A program made the translations under genes and the position numbers. From a virus, in UHGV virus genome UHGV-0019118: DNA of 31,495 bases. One strand, given 5' to 3'. The notes under the pieces are model-generated. The model made no database searches. It was not told where the DNA came from and saw only the letters and a program-made list of their open reading frames with translations. This document shows positions 11,214 through 31,237 of the stretch, in pieces. Position 1 is the stretch's first letter; the number at the start of each line of letters is the position of its first letter.

Positions 11214-11401
11214 GTAGCAAGAATGACGCAGTTAAAGCTATGGGGCTACCGAGGGAAAATTGTTCAGCAATGGGACAACAAACATCGAGGTCTAGACCTT
11301 AAAAAAATAGCCTTGTTCTAGATCGCCCTTCCAATTACACTTGATTTAATCTCGACAGAGATGGAATTCTAAATGGCTAGCTTATAATTCAGGATTGAAA
11401 A

Positions 11402-12265
11402 ATGGAAGAATCTAAAAGAATACGCCAATTAAAAGAAAACCTCATAAAGGAACTACCTTTCTTTCCAAATGAAAAATCAATACGCACTGAACTAGAAAAT
11501 CAAAGTTTAAATGGGGTTTTAATCGCTTACCTCCACTGGAAAACAAGAATTGTGCCGACCCGCAGAAGGAGAGTTCATATATATCCAGAGGTAACGAGCG
11601 ATAAAAGATGGAAAGAACTAAAACTTGGTATTCATGGGTTACTGGATAAGGTCAGAAAAGGTGAAGACTTATACCCTCATCTTTCATTGCGCGCACATAA
11701 GTATGGCTACACTCCTGTTGAAAGAATTCGTAATGGAGATGCTGATTCATGGGAAGACAAAGATCAGTTATTAAATACGAAAGGTTTTCATCATTTTCAT
11801 TTGAGCATGAATATTCAAAGTACAGGCTTGGCCGAAAGGACAAATAATGTTCTTTTTGCCTTCGTTTCTCGCGACCAGTTTCATGCTGTGGGGATATTTG
11901 ATCATAGTGTATTTGATAAACCCGATAGTTTAAATGGCATGACTGAGGAACGTGAAAGAATGTGGACCCTGCATGAAAAATACATCACATTCGGAATGAA
12001 AGCTGGCACAGTGTATATAAACAATCTGATAACAGCATCCGGGCATCCTGTAAATCTTATCATGCTCGCCGATCGTTATGCTGCAATCATCCGAGAATAT
12101 GACCAGAAGGCGGAAGACAGAATTTTTGTAAATGAGCTTTATGCTCAAAGCCCACTTCCCTCTCCAGAAAGGTTTAAATTTGAGTGGCGCATAGAGGGTT
12201 TGGATCTTGTTCTTTTTGATAAAAAAAACAGAGTGGCCTTTAACGTCTACAAAGCTCACATTTAA
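11402..12265 (+). CDS. Hypothetical protein, AT-rich cargo gene (moron) between V and S
   Basis: 287-aa ORF on the strand opposite to all flanking late genes; visibly AT-rich; AGGA 7 nt upstream of ATG; TATAAT at about 11383-11388; strong hairpin directly downstream. Confidence 0.6.
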   Translation: MEESKRIRQLKENLIKELPFFPNEKSIRTELENQSLNGVLIAYLHWKTRIVPTRRRRVHIYPEVTSDKRWKELKLGIHGLLDKVRKGEDLYPHLSLRAHKYGYTPVERIRNGDADSWEDKDQLLNTKGFHHFHLSMNIQSTGLAERTNNVLFAFVSRDQFHAVGIFDHSVFDKPDSLNGMTEERERMWTLHEKYITFGMKAGTVYINNLITASGHPVNLIMLADRYAAIIREYDQKAEDRIFVNELYAQSPLPSPERFKFEWRIEGLDLVLFDKKNRVAFNVYKAHI

Positions 12266-18257: not shown

Positions 18258-20027
18258 ATGACCATTTCCACCGATACAACCTTGTTGCATGACCCGCGAC
18301 GGCAGGCATCGCTGCTTTACTGGCAGGGTTTTTCCGTGCCACAGATTGCCGAAATGCTGCAGGTCAAGCGCCCGACCGTGCAGAGCTGGAAGCAGCGCGA
18401 CGGCTGGGACGGCATCGCGCCGATTTCCCGCGTTGAAAGCAGCCTTGAGGCCAGGCTGATTCAGCTCATCGCCAAGCCGCAAAAGACAGGGGGGGATTTC
18501 AAAGAGATTGACCTGCTCGGACGGCAGATTGAACGGTTGGCGCGAGTCAACCGCTACAGCCAGACCGGCAACGAAGCCGACCTTAACCCCAACGTCGCCA
18601 ACCGCAACAAAGGGGAGCGCAAAAAGCCGAAAAAGAATTTTTTCAGCGACGAGGCTATCGATAAACTAGAGGAATTATTTTTCGACCAGTCTTTCGAGTA
18701 CCAGTTGCAGTGGTACCGCGCAGGACTGGAGCACCGTATTCGTGACATTCTCAAATCCCGCCAGATTGGCGCGACATTCTATTTCTCCCGCGAGGCACTG
18801 CTGCGCGCACTCAAAACCGGCCATAACCAGATATTTTTATCAGCCAGTAAAACGCAGGCTTACGTGTTCCGCGAATACATCATCCAGTTTGCGCGACTGG
18901 TCGACGTTGACCTGACTGGCGACCCGATTGTCATCGGTAACAACGGCGCAAAACTGATTTTTCTCGGTACCAATTCCAACACCGCGCAGAGCCATAACGG
19001 CGATCTGTATGTCGATGAAATATTCTGGATCCCGAATTTTCAGAAACTGCGCAAAGTCGCCTCGGGCATGGCCTCGCAAAAGCACCTGCGCTCGACCTAT
19101 TTTTCGACACCTTCCACGCTGGCGCACGGCGCTTACCCCTTCTGGTCTGGCGAGCTGTTCAACAAGGGGCGCAGCCGGATTGCCGACCGCATCGAAATCG
19201 ACATCAGTCACAGCGCGCTCGCCGGTGGCCAGCTCTGCGACGATGGCCAGTGGCGGCAGATTGTCACCATTGAGGACGCCCTTGCGGGTGGCTGCACCCT
19301 GTTCGACCTCGACCAGCTCAAACGCGAAAACAGTGATGAGGACTTTAAGAACCTGTTTATGTGCGAGTTTGTCGACGATAAAGCGTCGGTATTCCCGTTC
19401 GAGGAGCTGCAGCGCTGCATGGTCGATGTGATGGAGGAATGGGAGGACTTTGCCCCGTTCGCCGACCATCCGTTCGGCTCTCGTCCTGTCTGGATTGGCT
19501 ACGACCCGTCACACACCGGCGACAGTGCCGGGTGCGTCGTGCTCGCGCCGCCGGTGGTCTCTGGTGGCAAGTTCCGCATGCTGGAGCGCCACCAGTGGAA
19601 AGGCATGGACTTTGCCGCGCAGGCCGAGGGCATACGCAAACTGACCGAGAAATACAACGTCGAATACATCGGCATAGACGCAACCGGCCTCGGTCTCGGC
19701 GTGTTCCAGTTGGTGCGCTCATTCTACCCGGCGGCACGCGGCATCCGTTACACACCTGAGATGAAAACCGCGATGGTGCTCAAGGCAAAAGACACCATTC
19801 GCCGCGGCTGTCTGGAGTACGACGCCGGGGCGACCGACGTCACGCAGTCGTTTATGTCCATCCGCAAAACCATGACCAGCAGCGGGCGCAGCGCCACCTA
19901 CGAGGCCAGCCGCACCGAGGAAGCCAGTCACGCCGATATCGCATGGGCGACCATGCACGCCCTGTTAAACGAACCGCTTTCCGCCGGTAGCGGCATGCAG
20001 CCTAAATCCATTCTGGAGTTTAATTAA
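18258..20027 (+). CDS. P: Terminase large (ATPase) subunit P
   Basis: 589 aa; N-terminus MTISTDTTLLHDPRRQASLLYWQGFSVPQIAEMLQVKRPTVQSWKQRDGWD resembles P2 gpP. Confidence 0.9.
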   Translation: MTISTDTTLLHDPRRQASLLYWQGFSVPQIAEMLQVKRPTVQSWKQRDGWDGIAPISRVESSLEARLIQLIAKPQKTGGDFKEIDLLGRQIERLARVNRYSQTGNEADLNPNVANRNKGERKKPKKNFFSDEAIDKLEELFFDQSFEYQLQWYRAGLEHRIRDILKSRQIGATFYFSREALLRALKTGHNQIFLSASKTQAYVFREYIIQFARLVDVDLTGDPIVIGNNGAKLIFLGTNSNTAQSHNGDLYVDEIFWIPNFQKLRKVASGMASQKHLRSTYFSTPSTLAHGAYPFWSGELFNKGRSRIADRIEIDISHSALAGGQLCDDGQWRQIVTIEDALAGGCTLFDLDQLKRENSDEDFKNLFMCEFVDDKASVFPFEELQRCMVDVMEEWEDFAPFADHPFGSRPVWIGYDPSHTGDSAGCVVLAPPVVSGGKFRMLERHQWKGMDFAAQAEGIRKLTEKYNVEYIGIDATGLGLGVFQLVRSFYPAARGIRYTPEMKTAMVLKAKDTIRRGCLEYDAGATDVTQSFMSIRKTMTSSGRSATYEASRTEEASHADIAWATMHALLNEPLSAGSGMQPKSILEFN

Positions 20028-20773
20028 TGAAAAATAACGTTTTCTCACAAAGCCAGATTCAGGCAATGGCCGATATTCTGCACAATGACAGCTTTGACTA
20101 TCAGTCAACATGGTTGCGTGTCGGGAAACTCAATATCGACCGCAGCATCACCAAATCGCGCCAGACTGGCGCAACGCAGCTCTTTAGCCGTGAGGCGCTG
20201 CTTGATGCGCTGACAACGGGCGATAACCAGGTCTGGTTTGCTCACACCGTTGAGCATGCGCGGGTGGCGCTGATGTACATGCATAACCTTTCGGCGCGCG
20301 TCGGTGTCAGCCTTACGAGCAACGGCCACAGCCTGCAGCTCGACGACGGTGCGGTTATCAGCTTTGTCGGTGAGGAATCCCATTGCGCCGCGCTGGCGGG
20401 TAACGTCTACCTTGATGAGTTCGGATGGTTCAGTAACCCGCTAAGAGCGGCAAAAGTCGCGGCGGCTATCGCCTGCCATAAACGCCACAATCTGACGATG
20501 TTCACCTCGCCCTCTGATAATTATGACGCATTCCGGGTGTGGAACGGCACGTTCCGCAATCACCGACCGTCACCGCTAATTAATACCGGCGACAGCGTAT
20601 TTTGCACAGATGGTGTCTGGCGTCAGTCGGTCACTCTGGATGCAGCATGCCAGCGTGGATGCAATCTTTTTGCACCTGAGGAAATTAAACGCGAATACAG
20701 CGACGATAATTATCGTCTGCTGTTTGGCTGCGACTGGTCTTTCGCTGTTGCAGCGGGTGAGGTGGCAGCATGA
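20027..20773 (+). CDS. Paralogue of the terminase large subunit covering only its central ATPase region
   Basis: 248 aa; aligns by eye to P residues about 125-372 (KSRQTGATQLFSREALLDALTTGDNQ vs KSRQIGATFYFSREALLRALKTGHNQ; VYLDEFGWFSNP vs LYVDEIFWIPNF; DGVWRQSVTLDAA..GCNLF vs DGQWRQIVTIEDA..GCTLF); start overlaps the P stop (TAATG) and stop overlaps the Q start (ATGA). Confidence 0.6.
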   Translation: MKNNVFSQSQIQAMADILHNDSFDYQSTWLRVGKLNIDRSITKSRQTGATQLFSREALLDALTTGDNQVWFAHTVEHARVALMYMHNLSARVGVSLTSNGHSLQLDDGAVISFVGEESHCAALAGNVYLDEFGWFSNPLRAAKVAAAIACHKRHNLTMFTSPSDNYDAFRVWNGTFRNHRPSPLINTGDSVFCTDGVWRQSVTLDAACQRGCNLFAPEEIKREYSDDNYRLLFGCDWSFAVAAGEVAA

Positions 20774-21792
20774 GCAAGCGCAAGCCACGCAAAACAGTCG
20801 CCACGACCGCCAGCGCCCCGCAAAAAATGGAGGCGTTCACCTTCGGCGAGCCGGTGCCGGTGCTCGACAAGCGCGACATTCTGGATTACGTCGAGTGCAT
20901 CAGTAACGGCAAATGGTACGAGCCGCCGGTCAGCTTCTCCGGGCTGGCAAAGAGCCTGCGCTCTGCTGTACATCACAGCTCACCGATTTACGTTAAGCGC
21001 AACGTGCTCGCGAGCACCTACATTCCGCACCCGCTGTTATCCCGTCAGGATTTCAGCCGCTTTGCACTCGACTATCTTGTTTTTGGTAACGCCTTTCTTG
21101 AGCAGCGCCACAGCGTTACCGGCCAGCTAATCAAGCTACTGGCCTCACCGGCCAAATACACCCGGCGCGGGGTCGACGATTCGATTTTCTGGTTTGTGGA
21201 AAACTTCACTCTACCGCATGAGTTCGCGCCTGATACCGTGTTTCACCTGCTGGAGCCCGATATTAATCAGGAAATTTACGGCCTGCCCGAATATCTCAGC
21301 GCGCTTAATTCCGCCTGGCTGAATGAATCCGCGACGCTGTTCCGCCGCAAGTATTACCAGAACGGCGCGCACGCGGGTTACATCATGTATGTGACCGACC
21401 CGGCGCAAAGTGCGACCGACGTCGAATCGCTGCGCGAGGCGATGCGCAATTCGAAAGGTCTCGGCAACTTTAAGAACCTGTTTTTCTACGCCCCCGGCGG
21501 AAAACCGGACGGCATCAAAATCGTGCCACTGAGCGAGGTCGCTACAAAGGATGACTTTTTCAACATCAAGAAAGCCAGTGCCGCCGACCTGATGGACGCA
21601 CACCGCGTACCGTTCCAGCTCATGGGCGGCAAGCCCGAGAATATCGGCTCACTCGGCGACGTTGAGAAGGTGGCAAAGGTATTCGTGCGTAACGAGCTGT
21701 CACCCCTGCAGGACAGGTTCAGGGAGGTAAACGACTGGCTCGGCATGGAGGTCATCAGGTTCAAAGAGTACACCCTCGACAACCCGGAATAA
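20770..21792 (+). CDS. Q: Portal protein Q
   Basis: 340 aa, MSKRKPRKT... N-terminus, last gene before cos as in P2. Confidence 0.85.
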   Translation: MSKRKPRKTVATTASAPQKMEAFTFGEPVPVLDKRDILDYVECISNGKWYEPPVSFSGLAKSLRSAVHHSSPIYVKRNVLASTYIPHPLLSRQDFSRFALDYLVFGNAFLEQRHSVTGQLIKLLASPAKYTRRGVDDSIFWFVENFTLPHEFAPDTVFHLLEPDINQEIYGLPEYLSALNSAWLNESATLFRRKYYQNGAHAGYIMYVTDPAQSATDVESLREAMRNSKGLGNFKNLFFYAPGGKPDGIKIVPLSEVATKDDFFNIKKASAADLMDAHRVPFQLMGGKPENIGSLGDVEKVAKVFVRNELSPLQDRFREVNDWLGMEVIRFKEYTLDNPE

Positions 21793-21799
21793 CCCCCTC

Positions 21800-21823
21800 A
21801 AGCCGCCATTATGGCGGCTTTTA
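21800..21823. terminator. Hairpin terminator downstream of Q
   Basis: Inverted repeat agccgccat t atggcggct followed by TTTT. Confidence 0.5.
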
Positions 21824-21839
21824 CATACAAAACTTAAAC

Positions 21840-23075
21840 TTAGGCTTTGCTATTTATCATTCTGATATAACTAGGCATGCGAGGATCTGAAATTTTATAT
21901 ACCCCTCTGGCAGCCTTTGTAAGGATCGCTCCTTTATCAGCCCTAGTAAAACGCCCAATATAGTTACTCATGTGATAGTTACTCAATAAAACCCCCGTAT
22001 CTTCTCGAATTTGGGCAATCCATTCTTGAATGGTAAATTTATTATCTTTGAATTTTGCTGCTGCATAAAGTATTGATGGATAAATATCAGTTCTGGATGA
22101 AGTAACTGCGTTCTCATAGTCTCTTTTAAGTTGTCCCTCGGTGTTTATTACAGCTCGCTTCAAAGCTTCAGGAAGAATGTCGGAATTTACTTCGCTTTTA
22201 CCAGATGATAAAGCTATATCTGCAGATTCCTTTCCTATAAGATGTGTAAAATATGGAAAACCATTGCTAATTTCAACTATAGAGTTTTTAACTTCACGAC
22301 TAAATGTTATACCCAAGCCATGCTCGCCAGTCTCAATTATTTCATGTAAATATTTATCTTCAATTCGAGAGAGTTGAATTTCATGGAGGCATCTGTTCAC
22401 AGAAGGATGACCTGCTATCAACGAAGCACCGTCACTGGAAATGCCAACTAACAAAATCTTCAAAGGACTATTGGAATCACTAAGTTGTTTAACAAATTCA
22501 GCGACATCATGCTTAACGTCATCACTGACAACATCAAATTCATCTATTAAAAGTATTGCATTCAATTCTTCAAGCGCAAAACAGGCTTTACTTGGAGTAA
22601 GGTCTTCTTTTTCTATCGTGATTTTCTCTTCGGCAGAAACGTCCGCTCTAAATAATTTCAAAACATTAAGCCCAATACCTGCTTTTTTGGTAGTCTCTCT
22701 TTTATTTGCGGCATATTCACTATCAATAAATATAGCTGGCCTTGCAATTATATCTTTGAATTTTGTTTTTTTATCACATCGCACTACAAAAATGTTACTA
22801 GGTAACACACCTTCATTTTTCCCTCCCTCTAAAGTAGATAAGGCGAGCGAGCTTTTCCCAATCCCTCTCTCTCCATAAATCATGCAATGCTTACCATCAG
22901 TAGTTAAGGTGTCGAGGATATGTTCCACCTCGTTATCACGCCCTTTCAAATGGGTAGGTGCCTCAATAGGTTTAGACGGTGTAAAATATAAATCAACATT
23001 TTTAATTTTATTTTTTTTGGCTTTAAAATTACTGAATATGCTGCTGGTAGTTGTCATTTCCGCATCCCATTGCAA
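21840..23075 (-). CDS. Predicted P-loop NTPase (AAA-type ATPase with uncharacterised C-terminal half); AT-rich cargo gene between Q and cos
   Basis: Walker A GERGIGKSSLA and Walker B ILLIDEFDVV; track start is TTG at 23075, more likely ATG at 23055-23057; candidate promoter TTGCAC-N17-TTTAAT just upstream. Confidence 0.65.
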   Translation of the reverse strand: MQWDAEMTTTSSIFSNFKAKKNKIKNVDLYFTPSKPIEAPTHLKGRDNEVEHILDTLTTDGKHCMIYGERGIGKSSLALSTLEGGKNEGVLPSNIFVVRCDKKTKFKDIIARPAIFIDSEYAANKRETTKKAGIGLNVLKLFRADVSAEEKITIEKEDLTPSKACFALEELNAILLIDEFDVVSDDVKHDVAEFVKQLSDSNSPLKILLVGISSDGASLIAGHPSVNRCLHEIQLSRIEDKYLHEIIETGEHGLGITFSREVKNSIVEISNGFPYFTHLIGKESADIALSSGKSEVNSDILPEALKRAVINTEGQLKRDYENAVTSSRTDIYPSILYAAAKFKDNKFTIQEWIAQIREDTGVLLSNYHMSNYIGRFTRADKGAILTKAARGVYKISDPRMPSYIRMINSKA

Positions 23076-23175
23076 AAAGTTAACTCATTAAAAGAAAAAT
23101 TTAGAGTAAGTGCAACACCTATTTTCGGAGCTTGTCACAAGATTTACTACTGAAGTGTAACCGCTTTGGCGCGCA

Positions 23176-23194
23176 ATGCTTTCCCCGCCACGCC
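23176..23194. other. cos cohesive-end site
   Basis: atgctttccccgccacgcc is the reverse complement of GGCGTGGCGGGGAAAGCAT; 17/19 identical to the P2 cohesive end and identical to the 186 cohesive end as I recall it. Confidence 0.65.
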
Positions 23195-23353
23195 TGCCCG
23201 CTTTATGGGTCGGTTTTAATGCAGTTGCATGACAACTCTGGATCCGCGCTAGCTCTGGCGCGCACGGACAGAACGGGCAAGACTGACGCATGCAAAACCA
23301 TGCACCTGATGCATGCACGACTAAAAAACGGGAAATTCGCGGAAAAATGGCAT

Positions 23354-23384
23354 AAAAAAACCGGCATTCAGGGTGCCGGTTTTA
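23354..23384 (-). terminator. Rho-independent terminator ending the SOS-controlled minus-strand operon
   Basis: Stem accggca/tgccggt; on the minus strand it is followed by seven T residues. Confidence 0.5.
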
Positions 23385-23401: not shown

Positions 23402-23503
23402 TTAATGGCCGCGCAATGCGCCAATAACACTGTTGAGGCACATGCTGGCAACAATCATCAGAAAAATCGTCGTCCACGGATTTTCATAAACGAGAGATAA
23501 CAT
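23402..23503 (-). CDS. Possible 33-aa hydrophobic peptide
   Basis: ATG at 23501-23503, AAGAGGA about 11 nt upstream, translation MLSLVYENPWTTIFLMIVASMCLNSVIGALRGH, stop just before the terminator; not on the ORF track (under the length cut-off). Confidence 0.3.
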   Translation of the reverse strand: MLSLVYENPWTTIFLMIVASMCLNSVIGALRGH

Positions 23504-23519
23504 ATTTATATAGTTCCTC

Positions 23520-23804
23520 TTATTTGCGCATTCTGATGTGATTTAACAGGTGTTTGATAACGACTGATAGCTCATCTTTACCGGCCTGCTCGACCATTTT
23601 TGCGGTGTAGCTTTCCACCTCGCGAGAGCTCAGGTCGTTATTTAAAGCCATTAAAGTCAGATTCTTTGCCCAATCGGCAAACGGGTCATTTTTCGATGAA
23701 AGGGGATTTTGCATGTCCAAAAACCTCGAATTATTTAACCAGCAGACGGTTGAAGTATTTGCGACGCTATGACCGGCTAACGCCTCGCGTAGCTCGTTGT
23801 TCAA
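23520..23804 (-). CDS. Hypothetical small protein in the SOS operon
   Basis: ORF-track entry; a more plausible start is the ATG at 23712-23714 (GAGG upstream), giving about 63 aa. Confidence 0.35.
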   Translation of the reverse strand: MNNELREALAGHSVANTSTVCWLNNSRFLDMQNPLSSKNDPFADWAKNLTLMALNNDLSSREVESYTAKMVEQAGKDELSVVIKHLLNHIRMRK

Positions 23805-23847
23805 CCCCGCCAGACCTGAAAGCGAGTTTCAGCTCCGGCGGCGTTAT

Positions 23848-24057
23848 CTATGGTCGACGTGGTGGCGGTGAGTAATGTGTCGGCTTGCTGATGCTATCCA
23901 GCTTGCCGTAATTATCCCTGACTATTTCGGCACACCCGACCAGCTCGGCGGGTGTCAAATTCTCATTGACCATTATCTGCTGCAGACGATGAACGATGGC
24001 CATCAGTTTGATGCTTTTAGTTTTGTGCTGCGGAATTTCACCTGGTAGTCGATGCAT
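23848..24057 (-). CDS. Hypothetical small protein in the SOS operon
   Basis: 69-aa ORF with GAGGG 7 nt upstream of the ATG. Confidence 0.35.
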   Translation of the reverse strand: MHRLPGEIPQHKTKSIKLMAIVHRLQQIMVNENLTPAELVGCAEIVRDNYGKLDSISKPTHYSPPPRRP

Positions 24058-24256
24058 ATTATCACCCTCAATGAATTTTAATCAGTGCCGTCAAAACGCC
24101 ACTATAAAACCATCTCAGGTCATGCCTCATTAATCATGGGGGTGTCATCAATAGCACATTGAGAAATTTTGAAAGGCATGACTTAAGCCTCGTGGGCTCG
24201 TTACTCAACCCCGCCGACGCAAAAAGCTAGTTTTTGCGCCAGCACGGTTATTATGT

Positions 24257-24487
24257 TTAACGCCAGCTATCGTCTTCCCAAATCTCTTGTAATATGCTGC
24301 CTAATGTTTCTCTGTCCGCCTCTTTATCGAATCCGATAGCCTCTACACCAGTCATTGACCCTTTCTTAACGTTAACTTTTGTTGCAGGAAAAACGCATTG
24401 TACTCGATGTGTTATTTCATTCTGAAAAGCATCAATGATCTGTTGCCCTAATTTTTGCTCTTTATCCAACGTGATATTGATTCTCAT
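24257..24487 (-). CDS. DinI-family (DNA-damage-inducible protein I-like) protein
   Basis: 76 aa; MRINITLDKEQKL...ITHRVQCVFP...LQEIWEDDSWR follows the DinI pattern (MRIEV...RIQYAFP...LQETWE...W). Confidence 0.7.
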   Translation of the reverse strand: MRINITLDKEQKLGQQIIDAFQNEITHRVQCVFPATKVNVKKGSMTGVEAIGFDKEADRETLGSILQEIWEDDSWR

Positions 24488-24490
24488 AAT

Positions 24491-24673
24491 CTAATCAGCC
24501 TTATAAAAATTATCATCTTCGGTTTCGTTATTTTCGCTGTTTGCTAGGTCTGCAATGAGAGTGAGCGCGAGCTTTAAGTCTGATGGCTTGCAGTTTGCAA
24601 TCAGAGATACCTCGGCAATAAATTGCACACAAGCCCACTTTTGCTGCGTTCGGCTGAAATGTTCGCCAACCAT
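24491..24673 (-). CDS. Hypothetical 60-aa protein, first gene after the LexA box
   Basis: GGGAGG 6 nt upstream of the ATG; stop lies 3 nt before the DinI-like ATG. Confidence 0.45.
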   Translation of the reverse strand: MVGEHFSRTQQKWACVQFIAEVSLIANCKPSDLKLALTLIADLANSENNETEDDNFYKAD

Positions 24674-24692: not shown

Positions 24693-24712
24693 TACTGTAT
24701 GTTTATACAGTA
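24693..24712. promoter_or_regulatory. LexA (SOS) box
   Basis: TACTGTATGTTTATACAGTA matches the consensus TACTGTATATATATACAGTA at 18/20 positions, with CTGT-N8-ACAG intact; lies about 20 bp upstream of the 60-aa ORF. Confidence 0.7.
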
Positions 24713-24785: not shown

Positions 24786-27008
24786 TTACTCATGTATTGG
24801 TTTTGATGCTTCAGCCATCGCCGCAACACGATTAAGGATTTTCCGAGCTTTAGCCTCATGCGATGGTGCTGCGGAAAATATTTCTCCTTTGGCCGTTCCG
24901 CCTAGCCATTTACCATCAAAACAACTTTTACCACCGGCCATCAGGTGCAGGGCTTCGCCCCGGCTGATATTAATGCCGGTTGTCAGATGTATCTCGTCGA
25001 TAGTTTTAGCTATAGCTGCGTTTTGCTCATCCGTTCCGTGGATGAATTTTCGCCGTGCTGCTGGCTTTTGCTTCCTGAGTCGGTTGGTCAATTCTCGTCT
25101 TTCATGCCGACTCAGTGGTTTTGTTAAATCCAGTATCGGTGGATCGCTTTCGCTTCCCGTACAGTTATTGACAGAACTCCGAGGGACGGCTTTGCCGTCC
25201 TGAAGGTCAACGGCCAAATCAACAGCACGCTTCGGAACAATCTTCCACTGAGTGAGCCGGGTTAAAATCGGGCTTCCTGCACCTATGGAGGAATCGTAGA
25301 CCCCCTTAATACATACCGTTTCCTCACCGTACTGATTAAGCTCGGTACGCGGTTCATACAGTGTGCGCACCTGTAAATCATCGCGACGGACAAACGGCCC
25401 ACCCTGAGCATTAACATAACCAGCCCAGTCACCAGCGTCGGCGGCATCATGGACGGCGGCAAACTCAACGCTCAGACCGTGCGCGGTTTCGGTATCAGCG
25501 AGGCGACGCAACTCACGGTAAACCGTCACCGGCGCACCACCAATAAACTGAAACTGACGGATGTGCCAGCGCGCAGCCCATGCTGAAACGGCGGGGGCTG
25601 TCTCTTTCAGCAGCTCACCGCTTTCATCATCGGTTTCACCATCGAGAGCATAACCGTCGATATTTTTTGAAATGTATTTAGCAACATAGCCGGTTGCGCT
25701 GCCTTTCTCCGGGTCAATGGACTCGGCGTGGAAACGTGCTTTTTTGGATTTATCGCTTTTCAGTTCGTGGCGGTCTTCTTTCCATGCGTATTTACGGACG
25801 ATGGAGCGAACATATTCAACATCTTCCGGCAGCATGAACATCAGCATGTGCCAGTGTGGAGTGCCGTCGTGATGGGGCTCGGCGACACGAATACCGAAAA
25901 TACGGACATCTTCCCGATGTAGTTTGGCACGGATACGCGCCCAGATACCGGTTAGATAGTTTTGCGTGTCAGCCGGGCTGGCACCGCTCCATTTGCTGTT
26001 ACGGTAACCGGCTTTAGTCGTGGCGTGATATTTTGACGGCGCGGTTAGAGTGTAAAACTCACCGACATAACCGAGCTCATTACAGATGTTTTCAAACCCA
26101 CGAATGCGGGTCATGAGCTCACAGCGGCGAATCGCAGGGTTAGCAACTGAGCCATCATATTTTTCAATTAGGCTGATACGGTTGCCGTCTTCGTCTTCGA
26201 GATCCAGACCTTTGAGAAATTCACGAGTGCGGCGCTTTTGTTCACGCCAGTCAGTCACGCAGTTTTTACTCGCGTAAGTGTTTTTTTTCTTACTGACGTT
26301 GCCGACTGCAATTTGCAGGTGTTCGCGCCACGTAGCTGCAACACGGCGCAAACGACCGCGCCACCACCCATCGTTAAACATTTTGGCGATAGCCGGTGCG
26401 ATTTCATCCGCACCGACATATTTTTTTTCAACCCGCTCCCAATGTGGTGGGATAACGTTGAATTGGAGGGAAATAAAGCCAGCACGAATATACCAGGTGT
26501 ACAGCGTTTTAAGCTCGCCGAATCCGTGGTCATTAATGTTGGCAAGTTCACCACGAATGAAATTAGCAATATCAGCGGCCAACAGGTCAACATCAGCGCG
26601 CGACATGTCCGGGAGACGGTTATATCGGGCGACCATATTAACCATGCGTGACGACAGATATTGCATTTGCTGAGTATCAAAATGACTTCCAAAAACAGCG
26701 GTTGATACCTTGCTGTTGATACCAGCGCATTCGTATTTTTTTGCGACCAGTTCAAGACGCGGCAATGCCTTTTTGCAGAAGCTGATTAAAAATGCATTGG
26801 CTCGTTGACTACCCTGATTTTGCTCCAGCACCGCAGCAGTGCGATAAACATCTAACCGCACGCAGTCGGGCTGGAGAGAAAGCACCTTTTTTGCATGCAG
26901 CAAAGCCGCGAACATACGGTCGCGGCGATGCTGTTGCTCATAAGTAAGGTATGGGCTGGAGATTGCCGACCGTGGGATGTTCCACGGATAAGCGAATTGA
27001 ACAGCCAA
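24786..27008 (-). CDS. A: Rolling-circle replication initiator A
   Basis: 740 aa; HUH-type motif HDGTPHWHM and tyrosine motif YVAKYISKNIDGYALD; track start is a TTG, so the true start is uncertain. Confidence 0.85.
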   Translation of the reverse strand: MAVQFAYPWNIPRSAISSPYLTYEQQHRRDRMFAALLHAKKVLSLQPDCVRLDVYRTAAVLEQNQGSQRANAFLISFCKKALPRLELVAKKYECAGINSKVSTAVFGSHFDTQQMQYLSSRMVNMVARYNRLPDMSRADVDLLAADIANFIRGELANINDHGFGELKTLYTWYIRAGFISLQFNVIPPHWERVEKKYVGADEIAPAIAKMFNDGWWRGRLRRVAATWREHLQIAVGNVSKKKNTYASKNCVTDWREQKRRTREFLKGLDLEDEDGNRISLIEKYDGSVANPAIRRCELMTRIRGFENICNELGYVGEFYTLTAPSKYHATTKAGYRNSKWSGASPADTQNYLTGIWARIRAKLHREDVRIFGIRVAEPHHDGTPHWHMLMFMLPEDVEYVRSIVRKYAWKEDRHELKSDKSKKARFHAESIDPEKGSATGYVAKYISKNIDGYALDGETDDESGELLKETAPAVSAWAARWHIRQFQFIGGAPVTVYRELRRLADTETAHGLSVEFAAVHDAADAGDWAGYVNAQGGPFVRRDDLQVRTLYEPRTELNQYGEETVCIKGVYDSSIGAGSPILTRLTQWKIVPKRAVDLAVDLQDGKAVPRSSVNNCTGSESDPPILDLTKPLSRHERRELTNRLRKQKPAARRKFIHGTDEQNAAIAKTIDEIHLTTGINISRGEALHLMAGGKSCFDGKWLGGTAKGEIFSAAPSHEAKARKILNRVAAMAEASKPIHE

Positions 27009-28976: not shown

Positions 28977-29816
28977 ATGAATGATGAAGATTTGAATACG
29001 CAAGATGTGATTGAGCGGATTAGTTCGGCGTATGGTGTCAGCACGCAAAAGGCTTTGGCGGAAGTGCTTGGCGTCCCGTCAAACAGCGTCAGCACTTGGG
29101 TTCAGCGAAACAGTTTTCCAGGCAAAGCCATCATTCAGTGCTCATTAGATACTGGCGCCGATTTAAACTGGCTGCTGACTGGTCAAATTTCAAATTTGAA
29201 TTTGCAAGATTCATCGCCATTGAAAGGAAAGTCACTTTATGACGAGATTTTGGCGAGTGGTGGTAAACCTGTTTTAAGACGCATCCTTGATGCGTATGGT
29301 TTTACAATGCAAAAGGAGCTTGGAGATTTGTTGGATATCTCCTCAGGCACTATCAGCACTTGGGTAAGACGAGATTTCTTCCCCGGTGATGTAGTAGTTA
29401 CTTGTGCTCTTGATACCGGTGTTTCACTGGAATGGTTAGCAACCGGTAAAGGGCAAATGCGAACAAACAGGGAAGCTGTCACATCAGGTTTTTCAATTAA
29501 AAAATCCCGCCTTGAATCTGGTGAGCTTAAGGATGCTGGCGCATGGCACACAGACCCCTCGATGATACCCTCTGATTCAGATGAATTGATTTTTGTCGAA
29601 GGTGTGGGCTCCTCTTGGCTTGTCGACTGTTCGGCTTCGAACATAAGCAATGGGCGTTGGTTAATTGATATCGACGGCGCTCTTGATGTTTTTGATGTGA
29701 TTCGTCTTCCTGGAGGAAAAGTCAGGTTGTCTAATAAAACTGCTGAGTTTGAATGCAATATTTCAGATATCAAGCCTGTCGGGTCTGTAGTTCTTACATT
29801 GGAAAAACACGTATAA
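28977..29816 (+). CDS. cI: 186 CI-like immunity repressor with a duplicated N-terminal DNA-binding domain
   Basis: 279 aa; residues about 12-70 and 100-160 are clear copies of each other (…AYGVSTQKALAEVLGVPSNSVSTWVQRNSFPGKAIIQCSLDTGADLNWLLTGQ vs …AYGFTMQKELGDLLDISSGTISTWVRRDFFPGDVVVTCALDTGVSLEWLATGKGQ); divergent from apl and upstream of int. Confidence 0.75.
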   Translation: MNDEDLNTQDVIERISSAYGVSTQKALAEVLGVPSNSVSTWVQRNSFPGKAIIQCSLDTGADLNWLLTGQISNLNLQDSSPLKGKSLYDEILASGGKPVLRRILDAYGFTMQKELGDLLDISSGTISTWVRRDFFPGDVVVTCALDTGVSLEWLATGKGQMRTNREAVTSGFSIKKSRLESGELKDAGAWHTDPSMIPSDSDELIFVEGVGSSWLVDCSASNISNGRWLIDIDGALDVFDVIRLPGGKVRLSNKTAEFECNISDIKPVGSVVLTLEKHV

Positions 29817-30187: not shown

Positions 30188-31237
30188 ATGACAGTTAGTA
30201 AGCAAAAAAATGGCAAATGGTTATGCGAGCTCTATCCAAATGGTCGAGAAGGGCGGCGTATACGTCGGCAATTCAATACCAAAGGTGAGGCCGAGGCATT
30301 TGAAGCATTTACCAAAAGCGAGAGTGAAGATAAGCCGTGGCTCGGCAAGAAAGAAGACCGCCGACGCTTAAGCGAGATTATTCAGCTTTGGCACAATTTG
30401 CACGGTCAAGCGTTAGTCGCCAGTAAGTCGAGGTTTGCAAAGCTTCAAATCGTATGTAATGGACTTGGTGACCCGATTGCATCTCGCCTTACCGCGAAAG
30501 ACTGGGCTCATTATCGTGACCGTCGATTACGTGGTGAAATAGACAACGGTTATCATAAAGACCCCTCGAAATGGATCGCCAAACCTATAACCGTCAATCG
30601 CGAACAGCAATACCTAGAAGCAGTGTTTAATGAGCTCCGCCGGTTAGGGGAGTGGAGCCTACCCAATCCACTTGATGGGATTCGAGTATTCAAAGAAGCT
30701 GAGAAAGAAATGTCCTGGCTAACTTTGTCTCAGCTCCCGGAGCTGTTTCGAGCCTGCGAGCAATACGGCAAAGAAGACCTCACCATGATTGTTAAGGTGT
30801 GCCTTGCAACCGGCGCTCGATGGGGGGAGGCGGAGAGATTGACCCGCCCTCAACTTTCTCCATATAAACTGACGTTCACCAAAACCAAAGGTAAGAAGAA
30901 TCGCACAGTTCCTATTCCTAAATGGCTGTACGACGAGTTGTCCGAACGTCAGGGCAGAATGTTTAAACCCTGCTATCAGGAGTTTAAAAAGATGCTCAAA
31001 CTAACGAATATTGAATTGACGGAAGGGCAGAAGACGCACGTTTTGCGTCATACTTTTGGTGCGCATTTTATGATGAACGGCGGGAATATACTGGTACTGC
31101 AGAAAATTCTCGGGCATGCCAATATTCGAGAAACAATGAAGTATGCACACTTTGCTCCTGACCACCTTGAACAAGCTGTAACCCTCAATCCGTTATCGCT
31201 GTATGTTGGCGACAATGTGGCGGCAGAGGTTGCATAA
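30188..31237 (+). CDS. int: Tyrosine integrase
   Basis: 349 aa; C-terminal catalytic region HVLRHTFGAHFMMNGG...LGHANIRETMKYAHF; adjacent to attR. Confidence 0.9.
   Translation: MTVSKQKNGKWLCELYPNGREGRRIRRQFNTKGEAEAFEAFTKSESEDKPWLGKKEDRRRLSEIIQLWHNLHGQALVASKSRFAKLQIVCNGLGDPIASRLTAKDWAHYRDRRLRGEIDNGYHKDPSKWIAKPITVNREQQYLEAVFNELRRLGEWSLPNPLDGIRVFKEAEKEMSWLTLSQLPELFRACEQYGKEDLTMIVKVCLATGARWGEAERLTRPQLSPYKLTFTKTKGKKNRTVPIPKWLYDELSERQGRMFKPCYQEFKKMLKLTNIELTEGQKTHVLRHTFGAHFMMNGGNILVLQKILGHANIRETMKYAHFAPDHLEQAVTLNPLSLYVGDNVAAEVA

Follow-up and report, generated by a model that had tools for sequence, protein, structure and literature searches.

A stand-alone STAND/Orc1-Cdc6-like ATPase gene between the portal gene and cos of a phage 186-like prophage is a candidate anti-phage cargo

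Among the single-gene cargos carried near the cohesive end site (cos) of P2-like phages, Tin offers the precedent of exclusion achieved through direct binding, with no enzymatic effector involved. For the STAND class of switch ATPases, the signatures reportedly set out by Leipe et al. in 2004 are an hhGRExE motif ahead of the P-loop, a GxP motif in the helical domain, a sensor-1 arginine after strand 4 and a histidine (MHD) in the winged helix. The interval between gpA and gpQ of P2-like phages is a published anti-phage hotspot (PMC9122126), as a preliminary description of the DNA considered here had assumed. Here we analyzed a viral DNA stretch of 31,495 nucleotides, UHGV-0019118 (the window), which is an almost complete phage-186-like (Peduoviridae) prophage, tail and head genes included, together with the single ATPase gene that lies between its portal gene and cos. 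This gene is horizontally acquired accessory ("moron") cargo and not a P2/186 core gene, and its product is predicted by modeling to be a minimal STAND/Orc1-Cdc6-like module of ATPase domain, lid and winged helix. A role as anti-phage cargo, in which the gene encodes a single-protein anti-phage or superinfection-exclusion factor, is the reading that we favor, with a probability of roughly 55%.

The boundaries of the insert were determined by blastn against the circularized junction of phage 186. Homology to 186 stops at 21828, just past the hairpin (21800–21820) of the portal-operon terminator tW, and restarts at 23164, 12 bp ahead of cos, so that a foreign, AT-rich segment of 1335 bp (21829–23163) substitutes for the 127-bp GC-rich portal–cos spacer of 186. 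The left backbone flank is the portal gene (20770–21792, plus strand), a 340-residue homologue of 186 Orf2 and P2 Q that matches Pfam Phage_portal at E = 1.6e-12 and is 95% identical to phage 186 at the DNA level, followed by the retained tW (21800–21826, plus strand), a perfect 10-bp inverted repeat (21800–21809/21811–21820) and a T run that are the counterpart of the annotated tW in phage 186. The right flank is the cos 19-mer (23176–23194, minus strand), the reverse complement of GGCGTGGCGGGGAAAGCAT, which reads on the minus strand and is the same, base for base, as the annotated cos of phage 186. The coding sequence of the ATPase (21840–23057, minus strand, stop codon at 21840–21842) is the only long open reading frame (ORF) between the portal stop and cos, is convergent with the portal gene and starts 118 bp from cos. 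It encodes 405 residues from the ATG at 23057, a version favored over the alternative TTG start at 23075 (411 residues) by the N-termini of homologues and by the RefSeq annotation of near-identical Escherichia coli copies. The cargo-borne 5′ region upstream of the coding sequence (23058–23163, minus strand) is conserved with the E. coli alleles and not with a 52%-identity allele. The GC content of the gene is 36.3% compared to 53.4% in the rest of the window, a 17-point drop, and the GC profile of the window gives 0.35–0.38 for the segment against about 0.55, indicating that the gene is foreign cargo. These results bear out the layout given in the preliminary description, which had one convergent, conspicuously AT-rich gene of 405–411 residues filling about 1.4 kb between the portal stop at 21792 and the cos 19-mer. 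Its figure of about 130 bp for the usual P2 gap has to be corrected, however, because the Q coding sequence of P2 ends at base 187 and the portal gene of 186 at base 196, with cos at bases 1–19, and the normal gap is therefore 167–176 bp.

At the DNA level, the ATPase gene was found neither in 186 or P2 nor in any of the 105 phage records with matches to the flanks, and tblastn of phage records recovered relatives only in Mycobacterium phage Kevin1 and Gordonia phage Cashline, at 26–27% identity. A survey of 5426 complete E. coli genomes turned up the gene in only 4 (96–99% identity), each time at the portal–cos position of a 186-like prophage. One of the E. coli proteins, WP_130553851 (99% identical), had already been entered as "hypothetical" in the published Table S5A, outside the set of systems that were cloned and tested in that work (PMC9122126). 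Comparison of this interval across related prophages, which the preliminary description had called for, revealed turnover of the cargo. In the listed 186-like prophages of E. coli, this site has at least five states, at least four of them other than the ATPase, being either empty (about 129 bp) or filled by a DUF2188 gene matching the PADLOC candidate PDC-S16 (about 420–440 bp), by a pair of ORFs of 148 and 154 residues (about 1254 bp), by a cassette of 241 and 272 residues (about 1631 bp) or by the 405-residue ATPase (1335 bp). Nor is the gene a near-universal fixture of P2/186-like phages at this site, a finding that had been named beforehand as one that would refute the preliminary reading. 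In the record of phage vB_EcoM-613R3, a single 334-residue ORF fills the slot in place of the pair of 148 and 154 residues. Other portal–cos cargos lie at 871–1874 of locus L024, 824–2364 of L025, 832–1143 of L026 and 2566–3570 of L003, and no Pfam (beyond DUF2188) or validated defense annotation was found for such cargos in the E. coli 186-like prophages and vB_EcoM-613R3. Homologues of the ATPase ORF span 35–99% identity, and the ratio of nonsynonymous to synonymous substitution rates (dN/dS) is 0.07–0.27 against close alleles, with differences mainly at synonymous sites, indicating that the ORF is real and under purifying selection.

An exhaustive profile search for the family returned 6061 cluster representatives at E ≤ 1e-3 and 1405 at E ≤ 1e-30, with clusters drawn at 50% identity. 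Nearly all of the best 150 representatives are about 400 residues long and match end to end, and the family is spread over Proteobacteria, Bacteroidota, Desulfobacterota and actinophages. One metagenomic protein of 1191 residues (P0124) carries an NB-ARC and TPR (NLR-like) protein followed by a full copy of the family at residues 785–1188; it is either a fusion or a merged gene call and, as the only fusion among the best 150, is too little to infer a partner from. No conserved neighbor or partner gene was apparent in eight protein look-ups and six viral loci.

In viral genomes, relatives were found on 101 IMG/VR contigs, and the GC content of the gene is lower than that of its flanks in 74 of 78 viral loci (median difference −9.4 points). 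At least ten P2-like loci have a family gene at the portal, with alleles at 28–99% identity; those in the portal–cos slot of P2/186-like prophages are 99, 97, 95, 74, 73, 53, 52 and 28% identical to the window protein, and a gap of about 120 bp separates the start of the 52% allele from its variant cos, as is the case in the window. At least 14 lambdoid loci have the gene between the antiterminator Q/DUF968 gene and holin, the interval that is the classic lambdoid moron slot, and alleles at 58–60% identity are found there. A divergent subfamily of about 28% identity also lies between antiterminator Q and holin on many lambdoid contigs (L086–L099; for example, 6001–6942 of L086); it aligns to residues 27–338 only and, judged from this alignment, probably has a different C-terminus. 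Among the actinophages, the relative in Kevin1, gp30, is located in the cluster N variable region, the site of all characterized cluster N prophage defenses (PMC7542560), and that of Cashline is located between the tail genes and the integrase. Outside phages, the neighbors of the family gene in a metagenomic island are an AAA_15/21 ATPase, GmrSD and Mrr (type IV restriction), and those in a Pectobacterium islet are an orphan CdiI and a fragment of a transposase.

The protein was modeled with AlphaFold2 from an alignment of 36 homologues, giving a mean predicted local distance difference test score (pLDDT) of 86.6 and a predicted template modeling score (pTM) of 0.80, and the model is confident except for a hairpin at residues 121–148. 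The nucleotide-binding domain (residues 45–232; 22362–22925, minus strand) is delimited by invariant alignment columns, the model and Pfam nSTAND1/AAA_22 matches, and contains the Walker A motif (YGERGIGKSSLA; 22848–22874, minus strand) and the Walker B motif (ILLIDEFDVV; 22533–22556, minus strand), both of which had been noted in the preliminary description. The protein thus belongs to the P-loop AAA+/STAND NTPase superfamily, with Walker A and Walker B on an ASCE-type core and a helical lid after it. Within this domain, a beta-hairpin insert (residues 119–150; 22608–22703, minus strand) is variable and modeled with low confidence (pLDDT below 50 at residues 121–148), has the highest column entropy in the family and occupies the position of the initiator-specific motif in Orc/DnaA-type AAA+ proteins, making it, on the model, a candidate specificity element. 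The AAA+ lid or helical domain (residues 233–285; 22203–22361, minus strand), with a conserved GFPYFTHL (GxP) motif, is followed by a C-terminal helical linker (residues 286–338) and a winged-helix domain (residues 339–405), together at 21843–22202 on the minus strand and assigned from the model and its fold matches. The C-terminal half, which had previously been called unrecognized, is accordingly predicted to comprise these three elements. The winged helix has a net charge of +6, conserved lysine/arginine positions and an invariant DPRMPS tail. Invariant in the family are a STAND-like GRxxE motif ahead of the P-loop (G39, R40, E43), Walker A and Walker B, GHPSVxRC with R222 at an AAA+ Box VII-like position, the GxP motif GFPYFTHL (G266, P268) and a C-terminal G-Y-DPRMPS motif. 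The nucleotide-binding domain, lid, linker and winged helix account for all 405 residues, leaving neither an effector domain nor a repeat sensor.

Pfam nSTAND1 (PF20703) matches with 35.1 bits against a gathering threshold of 27.1 (E = 1.5e-8), covering model positions 18–217 of 379, and Pfam AAA_22 with 33.6 bits against a cut-off of 27; the RefSeq name of the E. coli copies is "nSTAND1 domain-containing NTPase". In PHROGs, the protein belongs to phrog_6841 (E = 1e-176), annotated as "unknown function"; NCBIfam gave only sub-threshold matches to RuvB, Orc1/Cdc6, Lon and RFC, and a sequence profile search of the PDB gave nothing past the P-loop level (E above 0.003). By structure, the highest-scoring matches were the archaeal Walker ATPase PABY2304 (2qen, 18.2), Orc1/Cdc6 on origin DNA (2qby_A, 17.4), Orc1/Cdc6 (1fnn_B, 17.3) and the archaeal Walker ATPase SSO1545 (2fna, 17.0), followed by TnsC and MuB (14–15) and by plant NLRs and CED-4 (13–14). 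Foldseek agreed with these matches. The C-terminal linker and winged helix match Orc1/Cdc6, PABY2304 and RuvB folds, and the fold search of BFVD gave only generic clamp-loader or AAA+ viral proteins. As modeled, the ATPase is a hybrid of Orc1/Cdc6-type AAA+ and STAND NTPases, composed of the nucleotide-binding oligomerization domain (NOD) module alone.

We take defense or superinfection exclusion as the likeliest role because a mobile, selected, stand-alone gene recurs in the conversion or defense slots of unrelated temperate phages, and such recurrence is a signature of prophage-borne anti-phage genes. The proposal in the preliminary description that the gene is a candidate for defense cargo stands in its cargo part, the gene being rare, foreign and swappable; the defense part is suggestive only and by association, given the recurrence of the family in a type IV restriction island and in accessory slots of temperate phages from three unrelated lineages, together with distant homology to PDC-S59. 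As to how such a protein might act, it would reside in the lysogen as an ADP-bound monomer, its basic winged helix and variable hairpin would sense the incoming phage through a feature of its DNA or nucleoprotein or through one of its proteins, and ATP binding would then drive oligomerization on the recognized target. The assembly itself would obstruct phage replication or packaging, in the manner in which ORC, MuB and TnsC load onto DNA, and no enzymatic effector would be activated. This specific mechanism, an ADP/ATP switch with target-bound assembly as the block, is offered tentatively and, taken alone, is rather unlikely. It is likewise doubtful, though conceivable, that a NOD-only protein of about 400 residues is a complete immune system in which ATP-driven assembly on invader DNA, the cos/terminase complex or replication proteins constitutes the block.

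Several observations weigh against a defense role. Neither a phage-resistance experiment nor a functional study of any family member was found in the searchable literature, and no full-length match to a validated defense system was obtained in PADLOC-DB 2.0 or among the NCBIfam anti-phage equivalogs. The search of defense hidden Markov models that had been proposed for this protein returned one candidate system, PDC-S59 (9e-8), and no validated one, the remaining partial matches being mad8 (1e-3), IetA (0.035) and DS8_antiphage (15 bits against a cut-off of 790); the PDC-S59 match itself is limited to profile positions 29–249, the NTPase, with the C-terminal halves unaligned. The chromosomal sites in Aeromonas, Flavobacterium and Desulfobacterota are uninformative and are not defense islands, and the gpA–gpQ hotspot also houses non-defense cargo, such as partition systems and toxins (PMC9122126). 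The output step of the proposed mechanism is purely inferred because the protein has no effector domain. Finally, the promoter-like element of its own with which the gene had been credited was not recovered, as a sigma-70 consensus scan of 23058–23175 gave no promoter site and only a weak TTGCAC-17-TTTAAT can be seen by eye upstream of the gene.

Four other explanations were weighed against these data. An accessory role in replication, maintenance or packaging of the prophage, through an Orc1/Cdc6-, DnaA- or clamp-loader-like ATPase acting at ori or cos or through a plasmid-type maintenance function, would agree with the top fold matches (Orc1/Cdc6, RFC and RuvB), with the 118 bp that separate the gene from cos and with the partition genes found in the hotspot of about a quarter of P2-like phages (PMC9122126). 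However, 186, P2 and nearly all of their relatives replicate and package without the gene, copies occur as a solitary gene in chromosomes and, in lambdoid phages and actinophages, in accessory slots that have nothing to do with replication modules, the score of 12 bits is far from the Orc1/Cdc6 cut-off of 181, and the low GC content marks the gene as foreign cargo, so that we regard such a role as improbable. A similarly low likelihood applies to an ATP-dependent transcription regulator in lysogenic conversion, a MalT/AfsR-type STAND switch with the winged helix as its output, given that the winged helix forms part of the NOD/AAA+ module, as its integral third domain, and is not an added helix-turn-helix effector, that no conserved adjacent target operon was present in the contexts examined and that the family moves among very different hosts and phages.

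The position next to cos, and the finding that P2/P4 hotspots mediate inter-viral competition (PMC9122126), would suit a factor for counter-defense or competition between elements, aimed at host immunity or at P4-like satellites with the same P2-type cos. This is very unlikely because the family also occurs where P4-type satellites play no part, namely in lambdoid phages, in actinophages and at chromosomal sites outside phages, and no resemblance to known anti-defense proteins was seen. A relic of a transposon, namely a target-selection ATPase of the TniB/TnsC/IstB/MuB type left behind after insertion, has several observations against it. At the locus there is neither a transposase partner nor any terminal inverted repeat or target-site duplication; no conserved partner was seen in the other contexts examined, and family members almost always stand alone. 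Purifying selection acts on the protein, which is intact over its whole length, and TnsC and MuB are without a C-terminal winged helix. A transposon origin of the insert was also rejected, with no direct or inverted repeats bracketing 21829–23163. Each of these explanations fits fewer observations than a role in defense does, and the transposon relic alone is close to excluded.

The backbone around the insert has the features of a 186-like prophage, with terminase P at 18258–20027 (plus strand), replication gene A at 24786–27008 (minus strand), the CI repressor at 28977–29816 (plus strand) and the integrase at 30188–31237 (plus strand). Between terminase P and the portal gene lies a 186-type extra "W" ORF of 248 residues (20027–20773, plus strand), which resembles a duplicated N-terminal ATPase domain of terminase (Terminase_6N, 3.6e-19); phage 186 also has it ("W protein"), and the E. 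coli prophages with the same ATPase cargo lack it. Around cos, a 13-nt direct repeat, GCTYTGGCGCGCA, is present at 23163–23175 and 23252–23264, with cos between the copies, which are 89 bp apart; the left copy is the exact point where backbone homology restarts after the cargo, and the repeat may be part of an extended cos or terminase recognition region. Farther on, a strongly hydrophobic ORF of 33 residues (MLSLVYENPWTTIFLMIVASMCLNSVIGALRGH; 23402–23503, minus strand) lies near cos, directly upstream of a bidirectional terminator (23357–23383), and could encode a small membrane peptide or toxin-like product. The SOS-controlled DinI operon (23520–24673, minus strand) comprises four minus-strand ORFs (a 60-residue ORF, DinI, a 69-residue ORF and a 94-residue ORF) behind a perfect LexA box, CTGTATGTTTATACAG, and sits on the gpA side of cos, where 186 has tum/orf97. 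The sole good LexA box in the window (24695–24710) serves this operon, and SOS-driven read-through into the ATPase gene is unlikely because the bidirectional terminator and cos intervene. A second AT-rich islet (GC 0.375 over 11401–12000) coincides with a 287-residue ORF (11402–12265, plus strand) that is antisense to the surrounding late and tail genes and has no Pfam match; it is probably another uncharacterized cargo gene of the prophage.

The hotspot, the domain class, the domain-name annotation of the gene and its listing in a published supplementary table were already known; the new element is that a large family of NOD-only proteins without an effector is recognized as recurrent phage cargo. 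If the gene does act in defense, it would extend the STAND/NLR-like immune repertoire by a very compact, single-gene and effector-less protein, it would assign a role to the large orphan family phrog_6841, which recurs in accessory slots of P2-like, lambdoid and cluster N temperate phages, and it would show the portal side of cos to be an active cargo site as well, besides the gpA side with old and tin. A NOD-only immune protein, if that is what the family encodes, would amount to an unrecognized and widespread class of phage-borne immunity with more than 1400 sequence clusters, and would plausibly be intermediate in evolution between AAA+ proteins of the Orc1/Cdc6 type and tripartite STAND receptors. 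If the gene is not protective, it is one more uncharacterized moron in a known hotspot.

Compared with known systems, the ATPase shares with the STAND/NLR-like anti-phage proteins (Avs/AVAST, bNACHT and the TIR-NLR of P4 hotspots) a P-loop switch NTPase, an N-terminal GRxE-type motif, Walker A and B, a GxP lid motif and a winged helix, as well as carriage in phage or satellite hotspots. It differs from them in its length of about 405 residues, having neither an N-terminal effector (TIR, SIR2 or nuclease) nor a C-terminal TPR or other repeat sensor and so not the canonical tripartite architecture, and in the lack of both the sensor-1 arginine after strand 4 (VGIS is found there) and the invariant MHD-type histidine of the winged helix; the Avs and NLR models of PADLOC gave no match to it. 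With Orc1/Cdc6 initiators it has in common, as modeled, the fold of AAA+ base, lid and C-terminal winged helix of the DNA-binding type. Sequence identity to Orc1/Cdc6, PABY2304 and SSO1545 (Pfam ATPase_2) is only 13–17%, however, the scores are 12.2 bits for TIGR02928 against a cut-off of 181 and 20 bits for ATPase_2 against a cut-off of 33, and matches of family members to the Orc1/Cdc6 model are all sub-threshold (18 of 36 members). Unlike those initiators, the ATPase is without the sensor-2 arginine, has a beta-hairpin where the helical initiator-specific motif belongs and is encoded by a gene unlinked to an origin or replication genes.

The nearest candidate among defense models, PDC-S59, is a single-gene PADLOC system for which no published validation was found in the literature. 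Its profile length of 428 is close to the roughly 400 residues of the family, and 35 of the 36 aligned family members match it (best E = 2e-13), the window protein itself at only 29.5 bits; the homology is distant. In genomic position, the closest counterparts are old and tin of P2, Orf97 of 186 and the gpA–gpQ cargo described by Rousset et al. (2022). The ATPase has no sequence relationship to old, tin or Orf97 and lies on the portal side of cos, whereas they lie on the gpA side. Like them, it is a single-gene cargo in the same cos-proximal interval, between gpA and gpQ, whose content varies among related prophages.

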